A DNA stretch of 51,429 nucleotides from assembly GCA_036260495.1 (NCBI GenBank), contig DATAMS010000647.1, positions 1-51,429 on the forward strand, given 5' to 3'. Shown here piece by piece: positions 3,836 to 9,951 of the stretch. A program made the position numbers and the translations under genes. This DNA is from Thermoanaerobaculia bacterium (GTDB lineage Bacteria > Acidobacteriota > Thermoanaerobaculia > Gp7-AA8). How positions within the stretch are numbered: position 1 is the first letter of the stretch; every line of letters starts with the position of its first letter. Below the pieces are notes generated by a model. The model had not been told where the DNA came from and did not search any database. It saw nothing but the letters and a program-made list of their open reading frames with translations.

Positions 3836-5323
3836 ATGACAGACGAACACACACACAATGGCTGCAACCACGGCGAGATGCTTCAGGACGTCGCGCGCCA
3901 GGCGATGATCGACAAAGGCCTCGCGCCCGATTTTTCTGCCGACGCTGAGAAACAGGCGGAGGCGGTGACGGGACCGGCGCAGGATACCGACGCGTCGATC
4001 AAAGACCTGCGCAATCTCCTCTGGTGCTCGATCGACAATGACGACTCGCGCGACCTCGACCAACTCACGGTCGCCGAGGACCTCGGCGGCGGAAACGTTC
4101 GCGCGATGATCGCCGTCGCCGACGTCGATGCCATCGTCAAGAAAGGCTCGCCGATCGACGATCACGCGCGCCAGAACACGACCTCGGTCTACACAGCCGC
4201 GCGCATTTTTCCGATGCTGCCCGAAAAGCTATCGACGAACCTGACGTCGTTGAATGAAAACGAAGAACGGATCGCGCTGGTCATGGACATCGTGGTCGAT
4301 TCCACCGGCTCCGTGACGAAGGGCGACGTCTATCGCGCACGCGTTCACAACAAAGCGCAGCTCGCCTACAACGCCCTCGGCATGTGGCTGGAAGGAAAGG
4401 GCGAATTGCCGGCGAAGGCGAAAGCGGTACCGGGCCTCGCCGAGAATCTCAAGCTGCAGGACAAGCTCGCCGATACGATGCGCGAGCTCCGCCACGAGAA
4501 CGGCGCGCTCGATCTCGAGACGATCGAGGCGCGCGCGGTCATGAGCAACGGCCACGTCGTCGATCTGCAGGTGGAGGCGCGCAACAACGCCAAGAACCTG
4601 ATCGAGGACTTCATGATCGCGGCGAACGGCGTCAGCGCACGTTATCTCGCGGACAAAGGTCTGCCCAGTCTGCGCCGCGTCGTCCGTTCGCCGGAACGCT
4701 GGGATCGCATCGAAGCGATCGCCGCGCAGTACGGCGAGAAGCTGCCAGGCGAGGCCGATGCGCAGGCCCTCGAAGAGTTTCTCGTTCGCCGCCGCAAAGC
4801 CGATCCGCTCCGTTTTCCCGATCTATCGCTGGCAATCGTGAAGGCGATGGGTGCGGGCGAGTACGTCGTCGAGATGCCTGGCCAGACGCCGATCGGCCAC
4901 TTCGGATTGGCCGTGAAGGACTACACGCACTCGACCGCGCCGAACCGGCGCTTCCCCGATCTCATTACGCATCGTTTGATCAAAGCCGCGCTCGCGGGCG
5001 CGACTTCGCCGTACACGCGCGAGGAGCTCGAAGCGCTGGCGACGCATTGCACCGAGGCGGAAGATGCGGCGAATAAGGTGGAGCGCCAGGTGAGGAAGTC
5101 TGCTGCTGCCTGCATCCTCGAGCCGCGCATCGGCGACCGCTTCGACGGACTCGTTACCGGCGCGTCCGAAAAAGGAACGTGGGTGCGCGTCTTCCATCCG
5201 CCGGTCGAGGGGAAGGTCGTGCACGGCGCGCAAGGGCTTGACGTCGGCGACAAGGTCACCGTCAAGCTGATCGACGTGAACGTCGAGCGCGGCTACATCG
5301 ACTTCGTGCGCGTCCACCACTGA
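3836..5323 (+). CDS. RNB-domain exoribonuclease (RNase II/R family) with C-terminal S1-like domain
   Basis: 495-aa ORF. RNB motifs are present: DSRDLDQ and HFGLAVKDYTHSTAPNRRFPDLITHR. The C-terminal stretch GDRFDGLVTGASEKGTWVRV resembles an S1 fold. Confidence 0.8.
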   Translation: MTDEHTHNGCNHGEMLQDVARQAMIDKGLAPDFSADAEKQAEAVTGPAQDTDASIKDLRNLLWCSIDNDDSRDLDQLTVAEDLGGGNVRAMIAVADVDAIVKKGSPIDDHARQNTTSVYTAARIFPMLPEKLSTNLTSLNENEERIALVMDIVVDSTGSVTKGDVYRARVHNKAQLAYNALGMWLEGKGELPAKAKAVPGLAENLKLQDKLADTMRELRHENGALDLETIEARAVMSNGHVVDLQVEARNNAKNLIEDFMIAANGVSARYLADKGLPSLRRVVRSPERWDRIEAIAAQYGEKLPGEADAQALEEFLVRRRKADPLRFPDLSLAIVKAMGAGEYVVEMPGQTPIGHFGLAVKDYTHSTAPNRRFPDLITHRLIKAALAGATSPYTREELEALATHCTEAEDAANKVERQVRKSAAACILEPRIGDRFDGLVTGASEKGTWVRVFHPPVEGKVVHGAQGLDVGDKVTVKLIDVNVERGYIDFVRVHH

Positions 5324-6645
5324 GACGCGAGCGCGAGCAGGAAAAGCGCCGGCGCGGCGAGGTGCATCAACAATCGGTTGGCCGTGACTGCGATCAGGTC
5401 GGTGACGACCCATTCCGTGGCGACGTAGACGCCGCAGTAGATGGCCAGCATCGACACGATGACGGCGATGGCGATCGTGGCCGCGCGGCGATCGACGCGG
5501 ATCGCAAATGCGCCAGCGATGATGACGGCGATCCAGAAAATCCCCCAGCTCGAGAAGGCGATCATGTGCTGTGGAAATGCAGTCAGCGCGGCGCGAAGGT
5601 GGTCCAGCTTCTCCGGAATCGTCGGCAGCATGCGCACGAAATTCTCTTCGTCACCAACCGGGATGCGCCCTCGCCAGACAAGGAGTGCGACGGCGGCGAT
5701 GATTGCGAAGATCGCGGGCGTGGCGATCCTCTTTCGAAAGACGAACGCGCCGATGACGAGGAAGACCAGCGCGAATGGCAGCCCTTCGCTCTTCGTGAGG
5801 ATGAGGAAAGCGAGCCAGAGTCCGAAGCGAATCTCGCGGTAGTCTGCGGTCGCGAGGTCTCGCGGCTGCGAGGTCTCGCGATCCTTCTCCCCGATGGAAG
5901 ACCGCGAGACCGCAAAACTGCGAGACCTCGCGACCGCATCCACCAACTCGAAAAACGCGCCTGCCGCAAACGCGGCGATGGCGATGTCGTTGTACGCCGA
6001 GAGCGCGCCTCCTTCCGTTGCGATGGCAAACTGCGGAATCCAGACGAGCAACGCTGCGCACCAGGCACCGATTGCGGGCGAGATCAGATTCGCGATTCGC
6101 TCGCGCACCAGCAGCGCGAGCGCAGCGAGGAGTCCGGCGTAAAGCCAGCGAACTTGACGATCGTCGAGACTGTGCGAAAGAGCAAAGATCACGGCGCCAT
6201 CGATCGGAATCAGGATCGGATATTGGTTGCGCGGATCGAGCGTTGCGCCCTGAAAGAACGGCCCATCGATCGATCGCTCATGCGCGATCCCCTTCGCCTT
6301 CAACACCCAGAACGCGCGGCCATCGAAGTCGTTGAGCGGCGTGACGGCAGCGATGAACGCGAGAACGATCAGCGGAATGGCCATCAGGATTGTGGGGAGT
6401 GGGGTGTGGGGTGTTGGGTGTGGGGTGTCTCCTTTGTATTTGCGGTAGGTCCACACTGCGCCGCCGATGCTTGCAATCAGCAACAGCGCGAATCCAAGCA
6501 CCAACGGCACGTGCACTACGCCAGCGAGGAAGAGAATCGTCCCGAGGAGACCGACGCCGAATAGAAATGCTTCGCCCCAGCTTCGTCGCGCGACGCTCCA
6601 GCCCACGAGCGGAAAAAGGACGAGCGTGATGACGAGGCCGATCAT
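5293..6645 (-). CDS. Polytopic membrane protein, possibly a GT-C/ArnT-like glycosyltransferase; carries two in-frame repeat insertions
   Basis: 450-aa ORF with many hydrophobic helices and an ILTKSEGLPF-type loop. Its start overlaps the upstream stop (ATGA at 6642-6645). Its 3' end overlaps the convergent RNB gene by 31 nt. Confidence 0.6.
   Translation of the reverse strand: MIGLVITLVLFPLVGWSVARRSWGEAFLFGVGLLGTILFLAGVVHVPLVLGFALLLIASIGGAVWTYRKYKGDTPHPTPHTPLPTILMAIPLIVLAFIAAVTPLNDFDGRAFWVLKAKGIAHERSIDGPFFQGATLDPRNQYPILIPIDGAVIFALSHSLDDRQVRWLYAGLLAALALLVRERIANLISPAIGAWCAALLVWIPQFAIATEGGALSAYNDIAIAAFAAGAFFELVDAVARSRSFAVSRSSIGEKDRETSQPRDLATADYREIRFGLWLAFLILTKSEGLPFALVFLVIGAFVFRKRIATPAIFAIIAAVALLVWRGRIPVGDEENFVRMLPTIPEKLDHLRAALTAFPQHMIAFSSWGIFWIAVIIAGAFAIRVDRRAATIAIAVIVSMLAIYCGVYVATEWVVTDLIAVTANRLLMHLAAPALFLLALASQWWTRTKSM
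5845..5938. repeat. 94-nt palindromic element inside a CDS
   Basis: Perfect 19-bp arms: TGCGGTCGCGAGGTCTCGC (5845-5863) pairs with GCGAGACCTCGCGACCGCA (5920-5938). An inner imperfect pair and a direct repeat of GCGAGGTCTCGCG are also present. It is read through in frame. Confidence 0.85.
6392..6429 (+). repeat. G-run heptad repeat inside a CDS (G4 consensus on the + strand)
   Basis: The sequence is GTGGGGAGTGGGGTGTGGGGTGTTGGGTGTGGGGTGT. It has five G3-4 tracts separated by 2-4 nt and is translated on the minus strand as TPHPTPHTP. Confidence 0.8.
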
Positions 6646-7706
6646 CGATTGGGCTGGGACTCCGGCCAGTAAAAATCAGTCTTGCCGTTCAGTTCTCGCG
6701 TCGTTACGAAGGCATACACATTTCCGCTGACAGCCGGAATCGCGTTGATCGGTTTCGTCACGATCGCGTGCGGCATGATCGGAATCGTCTCGGGACCAAC
6801 AGTCGTCACAGCGATCGAGTCGCTGAAATTGAGAAGAAAGAGTTTCGCATCGCGATGAAGCGGAGCCGCCGGAATGTGCGTGGCGAACCGCTGCACATTC
6901 GGCAACCGCGTCGCATCACCGCGTCCTCGGTTCACGAAATAGAACGCCGTGCGCAGTGGAAGGCGTGACTCAATCTGCATCCAGCCGCTCTCCGTGACGC
7001 CGAAAAGTTGATAGACGAGGTCGTAGTACGCGACGCTGTCACCGGCCTCCATCCTCAGCGTTCTGCTCTCGCCTTTGGGCCAGAATGTGATGCGAACCTC
7101 GTTCGTGCGGGGAAGACGTTCCATCAGCGGGCTGTTCGGCGCAGGTCCGTTCTGACCAACGCTCTGGTACAGGAGCGTCGCTTCGATGATGAACGTCTCC
7201 GGCGAGGCACCATCGATTGAGGCCGCGATCGGCAGAATGAACGACGTTCCCGGCTCGCTCAACTGTGGCGTCATGACCTCGCGATGGCCCGCGCGCAACT
7301 CGCGATCGCGGAGAATTTCGTACGATGTCCGCTCCGCCTTTTCTGATGTCACCGCGACGATGGTCTTCGGCCGCGTCGGATCGGGAGCGGCGTTTCGATA
7401 GTCGTTTCGTCCGGCAAATAGTCTGGTGCGGATCGGATACAGATAGTAATTCGCGAAGATGGCCGCCTCGGTATCCCGAATGCCAATGACCAGCGCGACC
7501 GGCTCTTTTTTTGGAAGCGTTCTGCGCAGCGATTCGATCGATGCGTACCACGCGCCCATCTGCCGCTCTCTTCGCGCCTCGTACGGCAGCGGCAAGAGCG
7601 TCAGCGCTTCGCGCGTACGTGCGACCAGTCGCGGCAACGTCGTTGCTGCGAGCGAGAGCAACAGCAGCGCGCAGAAAACGCGCGGAATCAGCGAGCGGTT
7701 CCTCAT
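6642..7706 (-). CDS. Hypothetical protein with N-terminal membrane anchor/signal
   Basis: 354-aa ORF with a hydrophobic N-terminus (VFCALLLLSLAATTL). It is translationally coupled on both sides by ATGA overlaps at 7703-7706 and 6642-6645. I recognise no motif. Confidence 0.6.
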   Translation of the reverse strand: MRNRSLIPRVFCALLLLSLAATTLPRLVARTREALTLLPLPYEARRERQMGAWYASIESLRRTLPKKEPVALVIGIRDTEAAIFANYYLYPIRTRLFAGRNDYRNAAPDPTRPKTIVAVTSEKAERTSYEILRDRELRAGHREVMTPQLSEPGTSFILPIAASIDGASPETFIIEATLLYQSVGQNGPAPNSPLMERLPRTNEVRITFWPKGESRTLRMEAGDSVAYYDLVYQLFGVTESGWMQIESRLPLRTAFYFVNRGRGDATRLPNVQRFATHIPAAPLHRDAKLFLLNFSDSIAVTTVGPETIPIMPHAIVTKPINAIPAVSGNVYAFVTTRELNGKTDFYWPESQPNR

Positions 7707-8062
7707 CCTTCGCCGGCCGATACGACATGATTGTTCGCGCCCAGAGTCACGATGCGCGGTTTGTGCGCGATGGTCTGCCCTTCATGAAACGTGGCAAAGG
7801 AAAGGATGCTGATCGTGTCGCCGGTGCGCACTGGCGAGCGCGCCCCTGCATGCAACGCGATCTCGCCGCTTCCCGACTGCGCCGGCTCGACCCACGTCCG
7901 AAACCGCTCGCCCGTGCCCGTGTTGACGACCTCGACCTCCTCGAACGGCAGGATCTCCGCGGCATTCAAAACAAACGCATCAACGCGCAGCGAGACCGGC
8001 CAGAGCGTAGCCGCGCTGGTGACGACCGCGTTCTGAATGACGGCGTGGAGGAGGGTGCGCAC
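7703..8062 (-). CDS. PanD-like double-psi beta-barrel protein (divergent aspartate 1-decarboxylase homolog)
   Basis: 119-aa ORF with a GTG start. It is colinear with PanD (VT..A, D..L.AA.IL..E.V.VVN...G.RF.T, GD.I.I.SF) and lies downstream of panB-panC. The canonical catalytic motifs are altered (see findings). Confidence 0.7.
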   Translation of the reverse strand: MRTLLHAVIQNAVVTSAATLWPVSLRVDAFVLNAAEILPFEEVEVVNTGTGERFRTWVEPAQSGSGEIALHAGARSPVRTGDTISILSFATFHEGQTIAHKPRIVTLGANNHVVSAGEG

Positions 8063-8099
8063 TGGACTAATCGTATAACTGCATTCGGCTGTGCCGAAT

Positions 8100-8213
8100 G
8101 CGTTGTCGGTTGTCGGTTGATTGCGCTTCGCGCGTTGTCAGAGATGCGGACCGGCGAGACAACCCGCGCGACCGGCAACGCGCGAAGCACAATCAACCGA
8201 CAACCGACAACGC
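8100..8213. repeat. Long palindrome with heptamer-repeat arms between panC and the panD-like gene
   Basis: 37-nt arms at 8101-8137 and 8176-8212 with one mismatch. The arms contain tandem GTTGTCG units and the spacer is 38 nt. It is preceded by an 8-bp hairpin (8081-8101). Confidence 0.9.
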
Positions 8214-9071
8214 GTGCGCCGCCAGGCGCATGCAATCAATCAGGCGCGTTCTGCCCACCTTCACTGCACCGGCGATGAGGATATCGCGCTGAAAGTCTGC
8301 GGGTGCGAGGAACGTTTCGGGATCGACGACGGCCAGATAGTCGATCGTGACGCCGGGAGTTTCTTCGATTGTCTTCTGCATCAACATTTCGATCTTGCCC
8401 GCGTCGTGAACGCCTCGTCTGATCGCCTCTTCGCCAAGTCGCAACGCTCGATAAAGCGCAGGCGCGATCGCTCGTTCATCCGCCGAGAGGTAGCTGTTCC
8501 GCGACGATCGCGCCAGACCATCCGGCTCGCGCGCGGTTTCCGCGAAGACGAGCTTCACGGGGACATCGAGATCGCGGACCATCCGTTCGATCACGGCGCA
8601 TTGCTGCGCGTCTTTGCGGCCGAAGACGGCGAGGCCGGGCTGCACGATATTGAAGAGTTTCAGGACGACTGTGGCCACGCCGTCGAAGTGTCCCGGCCGG
8701 CGCTCGCCTTCGAGCGGCTTGGCCACGGCTCCGGCGCGGACCCAGGTCTGCGATCCGGGCGGATACATGACCGCGACCGTCGGTAGAAAGAGAACATCCG
8801 CACCTTTGCCTTCGAGCAACGCCGCGTCGCGCGCTTCATCGCGCGGATAGCGCTCGAAATCCTCATTCGGCCCGAACTGCGTCGGATTGACGAAGATTGA
8901 TACGACGATGAAGTCCGCGCCATTCGCGCGCGCCTCGTCGATGAGCGAGAGATGGCCATCGTGAAGAAAGCCCATCGTCGGGATGAAGCCGATGATTTTG
9001 CCGGCTGCTCGCGCGTTCGCAATGGCGTCGCGTGTCTCGTCGATGGTTCTTGTCGTGAGCATTCGCGGCAA
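8193..9071 (-). CDS. panC: Pantoate--beta-alanine ligase
   Basis: 292-aa ORF with PTMGFLHDGHLSL and VSIFVNPTQFGPNEDF motifs. The ORF opens with TTG at 9071; an ATG at 9062 is an alternative start. The stop at 8193 lies inside the right arm of the 8100-8213 palindrome. Confidence 0.9.
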   Translation of the reverse strand: MPRMLTTRTIDETRDAIANARAAGKIIGFIPTMGFLHDGHLSLIDEARANGADFIVVSIFVNPTQFGPNEDFERYPRDEARDAALLEGKGADVLFLPTVAVMYPPGSQTWVRAGAVAKPLEGERRPGHFDGVATVVLKLFNIVQPGLAVFGRKDAQQCAVIERMVRDLDVPVKLVFAETAREPDGLARSSRNSYLSADERAIAPALYRALRLGEEAIRRGVHDAGKIEMLMQKTIEETPGVTIDYLAVVDPETFLAPADFQRDILIAGAVKVGRTRLIDCMRLAAHALSVVG

Positions 9072-9075
9072 GAAC

Positions 9076-9951
9076 CTACTGCGCTTTCGGCATCTCGATC
9101 ACGATGCCCTCGCCGTACAACGCGCGCAAATCATCCGCGCTGGCCGCGTGGAACGACTCTTTCTGATCGTCAGGGAAACTTCCTTCGCGCACGTCATTGA
9201 GGTAATGCTCGATCGCGACGCGCATGTCATCGGCGATGTTTGCGTAGCGCCTCACGAATTTGGCCTGGTGGCCGTCGTAGATGCCGAGGAGATCGTGGAA
9301 GACGAGGACTTGTCCGTCGCAGGAAGGGCCGGCGCCGATGCCGAGCGTTGGAATCGAAACGCGCTCGGTGATCATCGCGGCCAGCTCCGACGGGACGCAC
9401 TCGAGCACGATCGAGAAACAGCCGGCTTGATCGAGCGCGAGCGCTTCATCGACGAGGCGGCGGGCATCGTCGAGATTCTTTCCCTGCAGTTTGAAGCCGC
9501 CGAGCGCGTTGACCGATTGCGGCGTGAGTCCGATGTGACCCATCACCGGAATCTCGGCGTCGAGGATGGCTTCGATGGCGCGAATGCGTGAAGCCTTGCC
9601 ACCTTCGACTTTGACCGCCTGCGCGCCGGCCTGGATGAAGCGGCCAGCATTGCGGACCGACTCCTCCAGGCTCACGTGATACGAGAGGTACGGCATGTCG
9701 CCGACGACGAGGGCGTGCGCGGCGCCGCGTGCGGCCGCGCGCGTGTGGTGGAGCATGTCGTCGACCGTGACGCTCAGCGTGTCGGGATAGCCGAGCACGA
9801 CCATGCCGAGGGAATCGCCGACCAGGATGATGTCGGAGCCGGCTGCGTCGGCGACCTTCGCGCTCGGGAAGTCGTACGCGGTGATCATCCCGATGCGCTT
9901 CTCGCCTTTCATGGCGCGGATGGCCGGGACGGTGATGCGTTTTTCTGCCAT
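9076..9951 (-). CDS. panB: 3-methyl-2-oxobutanoate hydroxymethyltransferase
   Basis: 291-aa ORF with MITAYDFPSAK, LVGDSLGMVVLGY and VKVEGG motifs typical of PanB. Confidence 0.95.
   Translation of the reverse strand: MAEKRITVPAIRAMKGEKRIGMITAYDFPSAKVADAAGSDIILVGDSLGMVVLGYPDTLSVTVDDMLHHTRAAARGAAHALVVGDMPYLSYHVSLEESVRNAGRFIQAGAQAVKVEGGKASRIRAIEAILDAEIPVMGHIGLTPQSVNALGGFKLQGKNLDDARRLVDEALALDQAGCFSIVLECVPSELAAMITERVSIPTLGIGAGPSCDGQVLVFHDLLGIYDGHQAKFVRRYANIADDMRVAIEHYLNDVREGSFPDDQKESFHAASADDLRALYGEGIVIEMPKAQ

Follow-up and report, generated by a model that had tools for sequence, protein, structure and literature searches.

A PanD orthologue of uncultured Acidobacteriota that has lost its catalytic set and is probably retained in a non-catalytic role

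Results

The pantothenate biosynthesis locus described here lies in a 51,429-nucleotide stretch of DNA (the window) from an uncultured member of the Thermoanaerobaculia (Acidobacteriota; contig DATAMS010000647.1 of assembly GCA_036260495.1), in which panB and panC are followed by a gene with a GTG start (7703-8062, minus strand) for a 119-aa protein homologous to PanD, the aspartate 1-decarboxylase that supplies beta-alanine. The operon opens on the minus strand with panB (ketopantoate hydroxymethyltransferase, 9076-9951; PF02548, 371.7 bits), found upstream of panC in all relatives examined, and continues with panC (pantoate-beta-alanine ligase, 8193-9071, minus strand; PF02569, 333.9 bits) and the PanD-like gene. 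Two further minus-strand genes complete it: that of a 354-aa, family-restricted protein combining an N-terminal membrane anchor with an alpha/beta domain and beta-sandwich domains (6642-7706), and that of a 450-aa polytopic membrane protein, weakly similar to glycosyltransferases of the GT-C fold and carrying an NDFDGR loop with D106 and D108 (5293-6645). A convergent RNase II-family gene with RNB and S1 domains (3836-5323, plus strand; PF00773, 290 bits; PF18614) sets the operon boundary, and where relatives lack the two membrane genes it comes directly after the PanD-like gene or panC. An earlier note on the same DNA had dealt with the part of this layout that lies downstream of panC, and the three open reading frames (ORFs) there, the ATGA overlaps joining them (PanD-like stop with 354-aa start, 354-aa stop with 450-aa start) and a large palindrome between panC and the PanD-like gene are all present as described there. 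The palindrome (8095-8218) has 43-nt arms (8095-8137 and 8176-8218) that are 93% complementary and spaced by 38 nt, the panC stop codon falling inside its right arm; panC and the PanD-like gene adjoin or nearly so in relatives (e.g. loci L005 and L007), and the palindrome is an element inserted between them.

The homology of the 119-aa protein to PanD extends over its full length, with a PF02261 match at residues 2-113 (82.4 bits; cut-off 25), a profile alignment with Mycobacterium tuberculosis PanD (2c45) that contains no gaps, and a search of the PDB with a profile of its close relatives in which PanD structures were the sole matches; the gapless whole-length alignment claimed earlier is thus upheld. 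With TIGR00223, the NCBIfam equivalog for panD, the protein scores 68.3 bits, below the cut-off of 106. Residue states were taken from three alignments (MAFFT with E. coli PanD, the profile alignment with 2c45, and one built with 30 canonical PanDs from the class), each of which reproduced the substitutions tabulated in the earlier note, namely K9V, H11Q, Y22W, G24V, Y58W and N72H in E. coli numbering, with S25, R54 and T57 retained. Equivalents of Lys9, Tyr58 and the Gly-Ser pair were not restored by profile alignment, Val9, Trp58 and Val-Ser staying in their places. The self-cleavage site Gly24-Ser25 therefore reads Val-Ser, and with three further changes missing from that table (G73A, A74G and I86S) the substrate loop Asn72-Gly-Ala-Ala reads His72-Ala-Gly-Ala. 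The PanD C-terminal tail is also missing in the clade of divergent sequences to which the protein belongs. We take Tyr58 to be the proton donor of PanD, Lys9 to bind the alpha-carboxylate of the substrate, Arg54 to bind its distal carboxylate and Ser25 to be the residue converted into the pyruvoyl group on self-cleavage. In E. coli PanD, Thr57 hydrogen-bonds the carbonyl of residue 24 in the zymogen, and both S25A and T57V abolish activation (PMC4410942); in the M. tuberculosis enzyme R54A is inactive, and the backbone amides of Ala74 and Ala75 bind the carboxylate of the ligand (PMC6969166). The divergent proteins are named 'aspartate 1-decarboxylase' in databases and by annotation pipelines.

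PF02261 searches covered 151 genomes of the class Thermoanaerobaculia and 61 genomes of the family, both sets being samples of metagenome-assembled genomes (MAGs) and negative results holding for the genomes searched. Canonical PanD (140-170 bits) is encoded in most genomes of the class, always in the order panB-panC-panD, and this order is common to canonical and divergent copies. The family sample comprises 10 genomes with a canonical PanD, two with an intermediate form (G035 and G095), about 25 with a divergent one (43-81 bits, the window included), two with relics (G172 and G027) and 22, some of them incomplete, without a PF02261 match. At most one match occurs per family genome, so canonical and divergent copies are never found together, and in the window's own genome (94% complete) a canonical panD could not be found elsewhere, the 119-aa gene being the only PF02261 match. 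In a PanB+PanC tree, all 25 divergent loci and all six panD-less ones form a single clade (support of 98 in the Shimodaira-Hasegawa-like approximate likelihood ratio test, SH-aLRT) that holds no canonical locus, and in the PanD tree the divergent sequences likewise make up one clade (support 100), which is nested among the canonical PanDs of the family and whose stem, at 1.15 substitutions per site, is longer than any other inner branch. The 119-aa gene is a panD orthologue, not an extra paralogue. The divergent clade is a small family: 1.84 billion representative proteins compared with its profile yielded some ten clusters above 100 bits, after which canonical PanDs follow.

Positions that are fixed in the enzyme drift in the divergent clade. 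A canonical reference of 31 sequences (30 PanDs of the class plus that of E. coli) is invariant at K9, H11, Y22, G24, S25, R54, T57, Y58, N72, G73, A74 and A75, whereas K9, G24 and N72 are absent from all 61 sequences of the divergent set. Position 25 of the latter is Ser in 32 sequences, Ala in 22, Thr in six and Gly in one, which takes at least eight changes on the tree; at least eight are likewise needed at position 54 (Arg in 50, other residues in 11) and at position 72 (His 43, Pro 13, others 5), and at least seven at position 58 (Trp 45, Phe 12, Tyr 3, Arg 1). Positions 9 and 24 also vary inside the clade, and the only one of these sites to have remained nearly still is 57, with Thr in 60 sequences, Ala in one and a single change. 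Among the canonical sequences no change at all is seen at 25, 54, 57, 58 or 72. The drift reaches into the genus of the window, whose own subclade retains Ser25 (TLWPV-S-LRVD) and most of whose other members have Ala (TLWPV-A-LRVD); in sister genera residues 24-25 read Leu-Thr, Val-Ala or Ala-Gly. Other residues have become newly fixed in the clade, these being N12 (R in canonical PanD), L26, E37, R80 and S86 (canonical I). A motif H-E-G-Q-T was also considered as a clade novelty and rejected, because H-E-G-Q is inherited from the family's canonical PanDs (L009, L015, L021).

Within the genus the PanD-like protein is under purifying selection, as canonical PanD is. The ratio of nonsynonymous to synonymous substitution rates (dN/dS, Nei-Gojobori) is 0.03-0.21 for PanD-like genes of the Ser25 and Ala25 forms and 0.03-0.09 for the Ala25 congeners, to be set beside 0.05-0.20 for pairs of canonical PanDs in the class, 0.05-0.09 for panB, 0.15-0.27 for panC, 0.17-0.31 for the 354-aa gene and 0.14-0.25 for the 450-aa gene; in the other genera of the clade the PanD-like gene gives 0.10-0.36. 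After the burst of change on the stem, intact ORFs of constant length are found in many genera.

The PanD-like gene is dispensable. It has been lost at least five times with panB and panC staying in place, and all 46 good family genomes have panC, including those from which panD has disappeared. In G039, a 98% complete genome of the window's genus, the locus runs panB-panC-354-450-RNB with a 44-bp junction and no PanD-like gene, and the same arrangement without the gene is seen in G047, whose congener G176 has it. The gene is likewise absent from G051 and present in its congener G181, and absent from G012 (sister to L007), G007 and G179, all of which retain panB and panC; G173/G152 and G159/G175 are further pairs that differ within a genus. 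On the PanB+PanC tree, used as a species proxy, the losses are separate events adjoining gene-bearing sisters. Two genes were caught in decay: a frameshifted PanD relic in G027, and in G172 a canonical PanD (L084 ~2140-2400 = G172:C126:6639-6899, minus strand) from which an in-frame internal deletion running from one 'EG' site to another (YEG|S... to ...HEG|Q) has removed residues ~25-96 and left an ORF of 56 aa, whereas its congener G185 (L085) has an intact gene. PanD at large is dispensable in the class as well: panC occurs in 17 of 17 genomes of family f5 and PanD in one of 17, family f9 has panC in 15 of 16 and PanD in five of 16, and family f13 has neither. Since panC without PanD is frequent in the class, a supply of beta-alanine other than PanD must be common in it.

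These searches also brought up further PanD homologues, most of them with altered catalytic positions. The two intermediate PanDs (L060 in G035 and L061 in G095) sit in another subclade of the family next to the canonical L065, and combine K9R, H11D/E, Y22A/L and G24D/A with either Y58S or T57S, Ser25 and Asn72 being kept and dN/dS against canonical PanD being about 0.3; here the catalytic set has eroded separately, for a second time. A degenerate PanD-like gene that arose independently, the second of its kind, encodes 133 aa in a different family of the class (L068 6926-7327, plus strand = G011:C3 ~350650-351051); its product lacks K9, G24-S25, R54, T57 and Y58 and has a Gly-rich loop in place of N72-GAA. 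This gene overlaps the stop codon of one for a deoxynucleoside kinase and is followed by serS. A canonical PanD is encoded with panC elsewhere in that genome (G011:C3:273014-273349), so the L068 gene is a dead paralogue beside an active copy, closer to a prozyme situation. Genome G100 has a normal panD and, in locus L067 (G100:C5:2674-2946), an additional PanD-like domain embedded in a 488-aa open frame; most catalytic residues of this domain are intact (K9, H11, Y22, G24, S25, R54, T57, Y58 and N72). Finally, among the 150 best representative matches to the clade profile there are ten PanD homologues without several of K9, G24, S25, Y58 and N72 (P0310, P0314, P0316, P0321, P0327, P0348, P0375, P0396, P0416 and P0421), and catalytic erosion of PanD may thus recur outside the family.

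The two downstream genes constitute a separate, movable envelope module at the 3' end of the operon, with no obligate linkage to the PanD-like gene in either direction. Neither protein has a match in Pfam or NCBIfam at E<=1, and their relatives are 'hypothetical proteins' of Thermoanaerobaculia only. Throughout the genus the PanD-like gene is followed by the pair, whose occurrence in this position is patchy elsewhere (L005, L051, L053, L056, L077). At least eight loci have the PanD-like gene without the pair and with RNB directly next to it (L007, L042, L052, L054, L055, L057, L058, L059), three genomes have the pair without the PanD-like gene (G039, G047, G173), and in four the pair lies away from the pan locus (G172, G185, G174, G119). 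Conservation of the three-gene linkage in relatives, which the earlier note had named as a check, fails beyond the genus. In one congener (G043:C15; L045, L076) a distance of 14 kb separates panB-panC from PanD-like/354/450/RNB, and the two groups are on different strands, a rearrangement that split the pan operon and the one event favouring linkage of the PanD-like gene with the pair.

An AlphaFold2 model of the 450-aa protein (mean predicted local distance difference test, pLDDT, 66; predicted template modelling score 0.69) is all-helical with 18 helices, and its top Foldseek matches in the PDB are all GT-C enzymes (STT3, AftA, ALG12), at E values of 0.04-0.9, none of them <=0.001, and template modelling scores of 0.35-0.44. 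The protein resembles GT-C glycosyltransferases (STT3/PglB, AftA, ALG12) in being polytopic and all-helical and in having an invariant acidic D-x-D loop that is predicted to follow the early helices, and differs from them in that it has no Pfam GT-C match and its predicted fold gives no significant ones. The N-D-F-D-G-R loop is invariant, with D106 and D108 in 33 sequences; its pLDDT is below 50, and the extracytoplasmic side on which GT-C enzymes have their early acidic (DxD/ExD-type) motif is for this loop a predicted one. Of the former description as a GT-C-like membrane protein, polytopic stands and GT-C is weakly backed. A charged Ser/Arg-rich stretch of this protein (residues ~236-267), encoded by a palindromic element at 5845-5938 of the window, has no consensus among relatives and a pLDDT below 50 at 244-261, consistent with a repeat-derived in-frame insertion. 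The model of the 354-aa protein (pLDDT 82.5) shows a membrane anchor, an alpha/beta domain and beta-sandwiches, and its matches among PDB folds are generic beta-sandwich or jelly-roll ones, none significant.

Because the genome has one PF02261 match and panC is kept throughout the family in spite of panD loss, beta-alanine would come from elsewhere. Four group-II pyridoxal phosphate (PLP) decarboxylases (PF00282) are encoded in the window's genome, with diaminobutyrate (DABA) decarboxylase and PanP as best partial matches; none of the four reaches an NCBIfam equivalog cut-off. The most PanP-like copy (contig C497) was tried as a PLP substitute for PanD and rejected, as its presence has no useful correlation with PanD status over the 61 family genomes: decarboxylases of this type accompany canonical PanD in some genomes and divergent PanD or none in others, and are missing from some PanD-less ones. 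As to the reductive pyrimidine route, a dihydropyrimidinase/hydantoinase is encoded on contig C553 (TIGR02033, 637 bits) without pathway neighbours, and no M20-type ureidopropionase scores above its cut-off in the genome. Uracil degradation (PMC7142369) and a promiscuous route from diaminopropane (PMC9213253) are known alternative sources, and Zymomonas mobilis, with panB and panC and no panD, is an outright auxotroph (bioRxiv 10.1101/144709). The C497 decarboxylase gene (C497:219-1673, minus strand) has an in-frame insert reading ...SRESEQNRGTIEQPPSTTPDTRHPTPAP..., absent in relatives, whose matches split at residues ~155-187; the insert is similar to the translations of G-run/palindromic repeats that occur in the window within the 450-aa gene (TPHPTPHTP) and thrC.

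Discussion

The PanD-like gene has lost its catalytic residues and is tightly conserved all the same, and a new, non-enzymatic role is therefore probable. We put at roughly 0.6 the probability that its product is a PanD orthologue that is catalytically dead, permanently uncleaved and kept for a dispensable, non-catalytic role tied to the pan operon. That the protein is inactive and remains uncleaved is probable from its residues. The ancestor of the clade would have undergone a burst of change that removed Lys9, the Gly24-Ser25 site, Tyr58 and the Asn72-Gly-Ala-Ala loop while the double-psi beta-barrel core was kept, the protein then coming under purifying selection as an uncleaved, zymogen-like PanD. 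Retention of Thr57 fits a protein of this kind, and that of Arg54 in most members suggests that the pocket could still bind a carboxylate. The remodelled pocket (Trp22, Arg26, Arg54, Thr57, Trp58, His72, Ser86) might thus bind a small carboxylate or a partner such as PanC, whose beta-alanine would arrive by another route or by uptake, and our best guess at the role is ligand binding or regulation in association with PanC. It is tempting to go further and speculate on a 'frozen zymogen' whose pocket, with Arg54 and Thr57 kept and Trp22, Arg26, Trp58 and His72 gained, senses or carries a pathway carboxylate such as beta-alanine, aspartate or pantothenate and which regulates or feeds PanC, in hosts that do not obtain beta-alanine from PanD, but in this specific form the proposal is tentative and the odds are against it.

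Comparison with known systems places the protein close to PanD by descent and away from it by mechanism. With canonical PanD (1AW8/1PPY, 2C45) it shares full-length gapless homology, length class, the position after panB-panC, and Arg54 and Thr57, and it descends from the canonical PanD of its own bacterial family; it differs in having none of Lys9, His11, Tyr22, Gly24, Tyr58, the Asn72-Gly73-Ala74-Ala75 loop and the C-terminal tail, in a position 25 that is not conserved as Ser in its clade, and in falling below the TIGR00223 cut-off. The two recognised PanD classes, the PanM/PanZ-dependent class I and the autonomous class II, are both made of active enzymes (PMC4537548), whereas the divergent PanD is probably inactive. 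The S25A and T57V variants of the E. coli enzyme (4CS0, 4CRZ) are folded, zymogen-like tetramers (pi-protein) that form no pyruvoyl group and bind PanZ.AcCoA (AcCoA, acetyl-coenzyme A) with nanomolar affinity (PMC4410942), and the Ala25 congeners are natural equivalents of the former; these variants were, however, made in the laboratory and the rest of their active site is intact, whereas in the natural clade the whole pocket is remodelled and the PanZ-binding C-terminal tail is missing. PanZ is itself reported from a small group of Gammaproteobacteria only (PMC3496974). Bacteria with panB and panC and no panD, such as Z. mobilis, correspond to the state of the panD-less relatives and probably to that of this genome, with the difference that panD is simply absent there and a remodelled, conserved copy is present here. 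A further parallel is the S-adenosylmethionine decarboxylase (AdoMetDC) prozyme of trypanosomatids, reportedly a dead paralogue of a pyruvoyl decarboxylase. Like the PanD-like protein it is said to descend from such a decarboxylase, to have lost self-processing and catalysis and to be selected for a non-catalytic regulatory role; the prozyme, however, acts by pairing with an active paralogue made alongside it in the cell, and none exists in this genome. The idea of a dead copy aiding an active one was for this reason discarded, no second PF02261 gene being present; as the genome has no active PanD, the protein is to be seen as an orthologue turned pseudoenzyme and not as a helper paralogue.

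The earlier note had offered two readings, an unusual but active class of PanD and a double-psi beta-barrel repurposed to work with the two envelope proteins. An aspartate 1-decarboxylase that cleaves at Val-Ser and relies on other catalytic residues, His72 or Trp58 perhaps standing in for Tyr58 and Asn72, would account for the Ser25, Arg54 and Thr57 of the window protein, for the panD position in the operon and for the fact that this is the only PF02261 gene of a 94% complete genome whose panB and panC need beta-alanine. It is very unlikely nonetheless, given that Ser25 has become Ala in most congeners under strong purifying selection (dN/dS 0.03-0.09) and Thr, Gly or Ala in sister genera, that S25A cannot be activated (PMC4410942), that Lys9 and Tyr58 are missing in essentially all members, that a 98% complete congener (G039) has panB-panC without the gene and that the TIGR00223 score is under the equivalog cut-off. 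As for the second reading, the barrel does look repurposed and beta-alanine does appear to come from elsewhere, and the part that is not borne out is the envelope partnership, which we regard as the least credible of the explanations weighed here. The ATGA overlaps link the three genes in the window, the trio is conserved throughout the genus and it stayed together in G043 when panB-panC moved 14 kb away; against this, each partner is found without the other, the PanD-like gene in at least eight loci and the membrane genes without it or off the pan locus altogether, and neither a signal peptide nor an anchor is seen in the PanD-like sequence, in contrast to the two envelope proteins.

Two more explanations start from the same pattern of change. 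A new enzyme, in which the remodelled pocket catalyses a different reaction, independent of pyruvoyl, with a small pathway-related acid as substrate, and which would for that reason have stayed in the pan operon, would be in keeping with the strong purifying selection, with the new conserved polar residues (N12, E37, R80 and S86, beside H94, Q97 and H101) and with a burst followed by constraint, as is typical of neofunctionalisation. We consider it unlikely, though less so than the other alternatives: H-E-G-Q is not new, since canonical PanDs of the family (L009, L015, L021) have it too, positions 24, 25, 54, 58 and 72 keep changing as would not be expected of a catalytic pocket, and the gene is repeatedly lost without loss of panB or panC. 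We also know of no double-psi beta-barrel of the aspartate decarboxylase (ADC) type that catalyses without a pyruvoyl group. At the other extreme the gene could be a functionless relic on its way to loss, a passenger serving, for instance, to carry translation into the downstream genes through its ATGA overlap; the independent losses, the relics in G172 and G027, the drift of catalytic positions and the weaker constraint in some genera (dN/dS 0.24-0.36) all point that way. Such a relic is scarcely probable when a dN/dS of 0.03-0.10 in the window's genus is on a par with that of canonical PanD and panB, when intact ORFs of constant length persist in many genera after the stem burst, and when the gene is conserved even where nothing is coupled downstream and the convergent RNB gene comes next (L007, L054, L055).

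Several points tell against a conserved, uncleaved pseudoenzyme as well. The window's subclade retains Ser25, Arg54 and Thr57, and other pyruvoyl enzymes cleave at sites that are not Gly-Ser; self-cleavage at Val-Ser may therefore still take place in this subclade. In some members of the clade Arg54, which would hold a carboxylate, is replaced by His, Gln, Glu or Gly, and constraint is weaker in other genera, where dN/dS rises to 0.24-0.36. Repeated loss means that whatever the protein does, be it the putative ligand binding or regulation, is not essential, and no alternative source of beta-alanine was pinned down among the PLP decarboxylases and the reductive pyrimidine route of the genome. 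The carriers are, moreover, all uncultured MAGs (41 loci in GTDB genomes), labelled Thermoanaerobaculia or Acidobacteria gp7 and mostly from soil surveys, and literature searches for dead or divergent PanD turned up nothing relevant.

Under the name 'aspartate 1-decarboxylase' these proteins lead metabolic reconstructions to credit this abundant group of uncultured soil Acidobacteriota with a beta-alanine source that they probably lack, and the real route to beta-alanine, or a dependence on scavenging it, bears on vitamin cross-feeding in soil. If a permanently uncleaved PanD does act as proposed, it would be, as far as our literature searches reach, the first described pseudoenzyme derived from PanD and would add a regulatory layer to pantothenate synthesis outside PanZ/PanM; binding to PanC or to a pathway metabolite would make it a regulator of a new type for the synthesis of coenzyme A precursors. 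One gene of the pathway is met within this family in several states, canonical, eroding, remodelled and conserved, freshly broken, and deleted, and the family thus offers a natural series for the study of how an enzyme becomes a pseudoenzyme.

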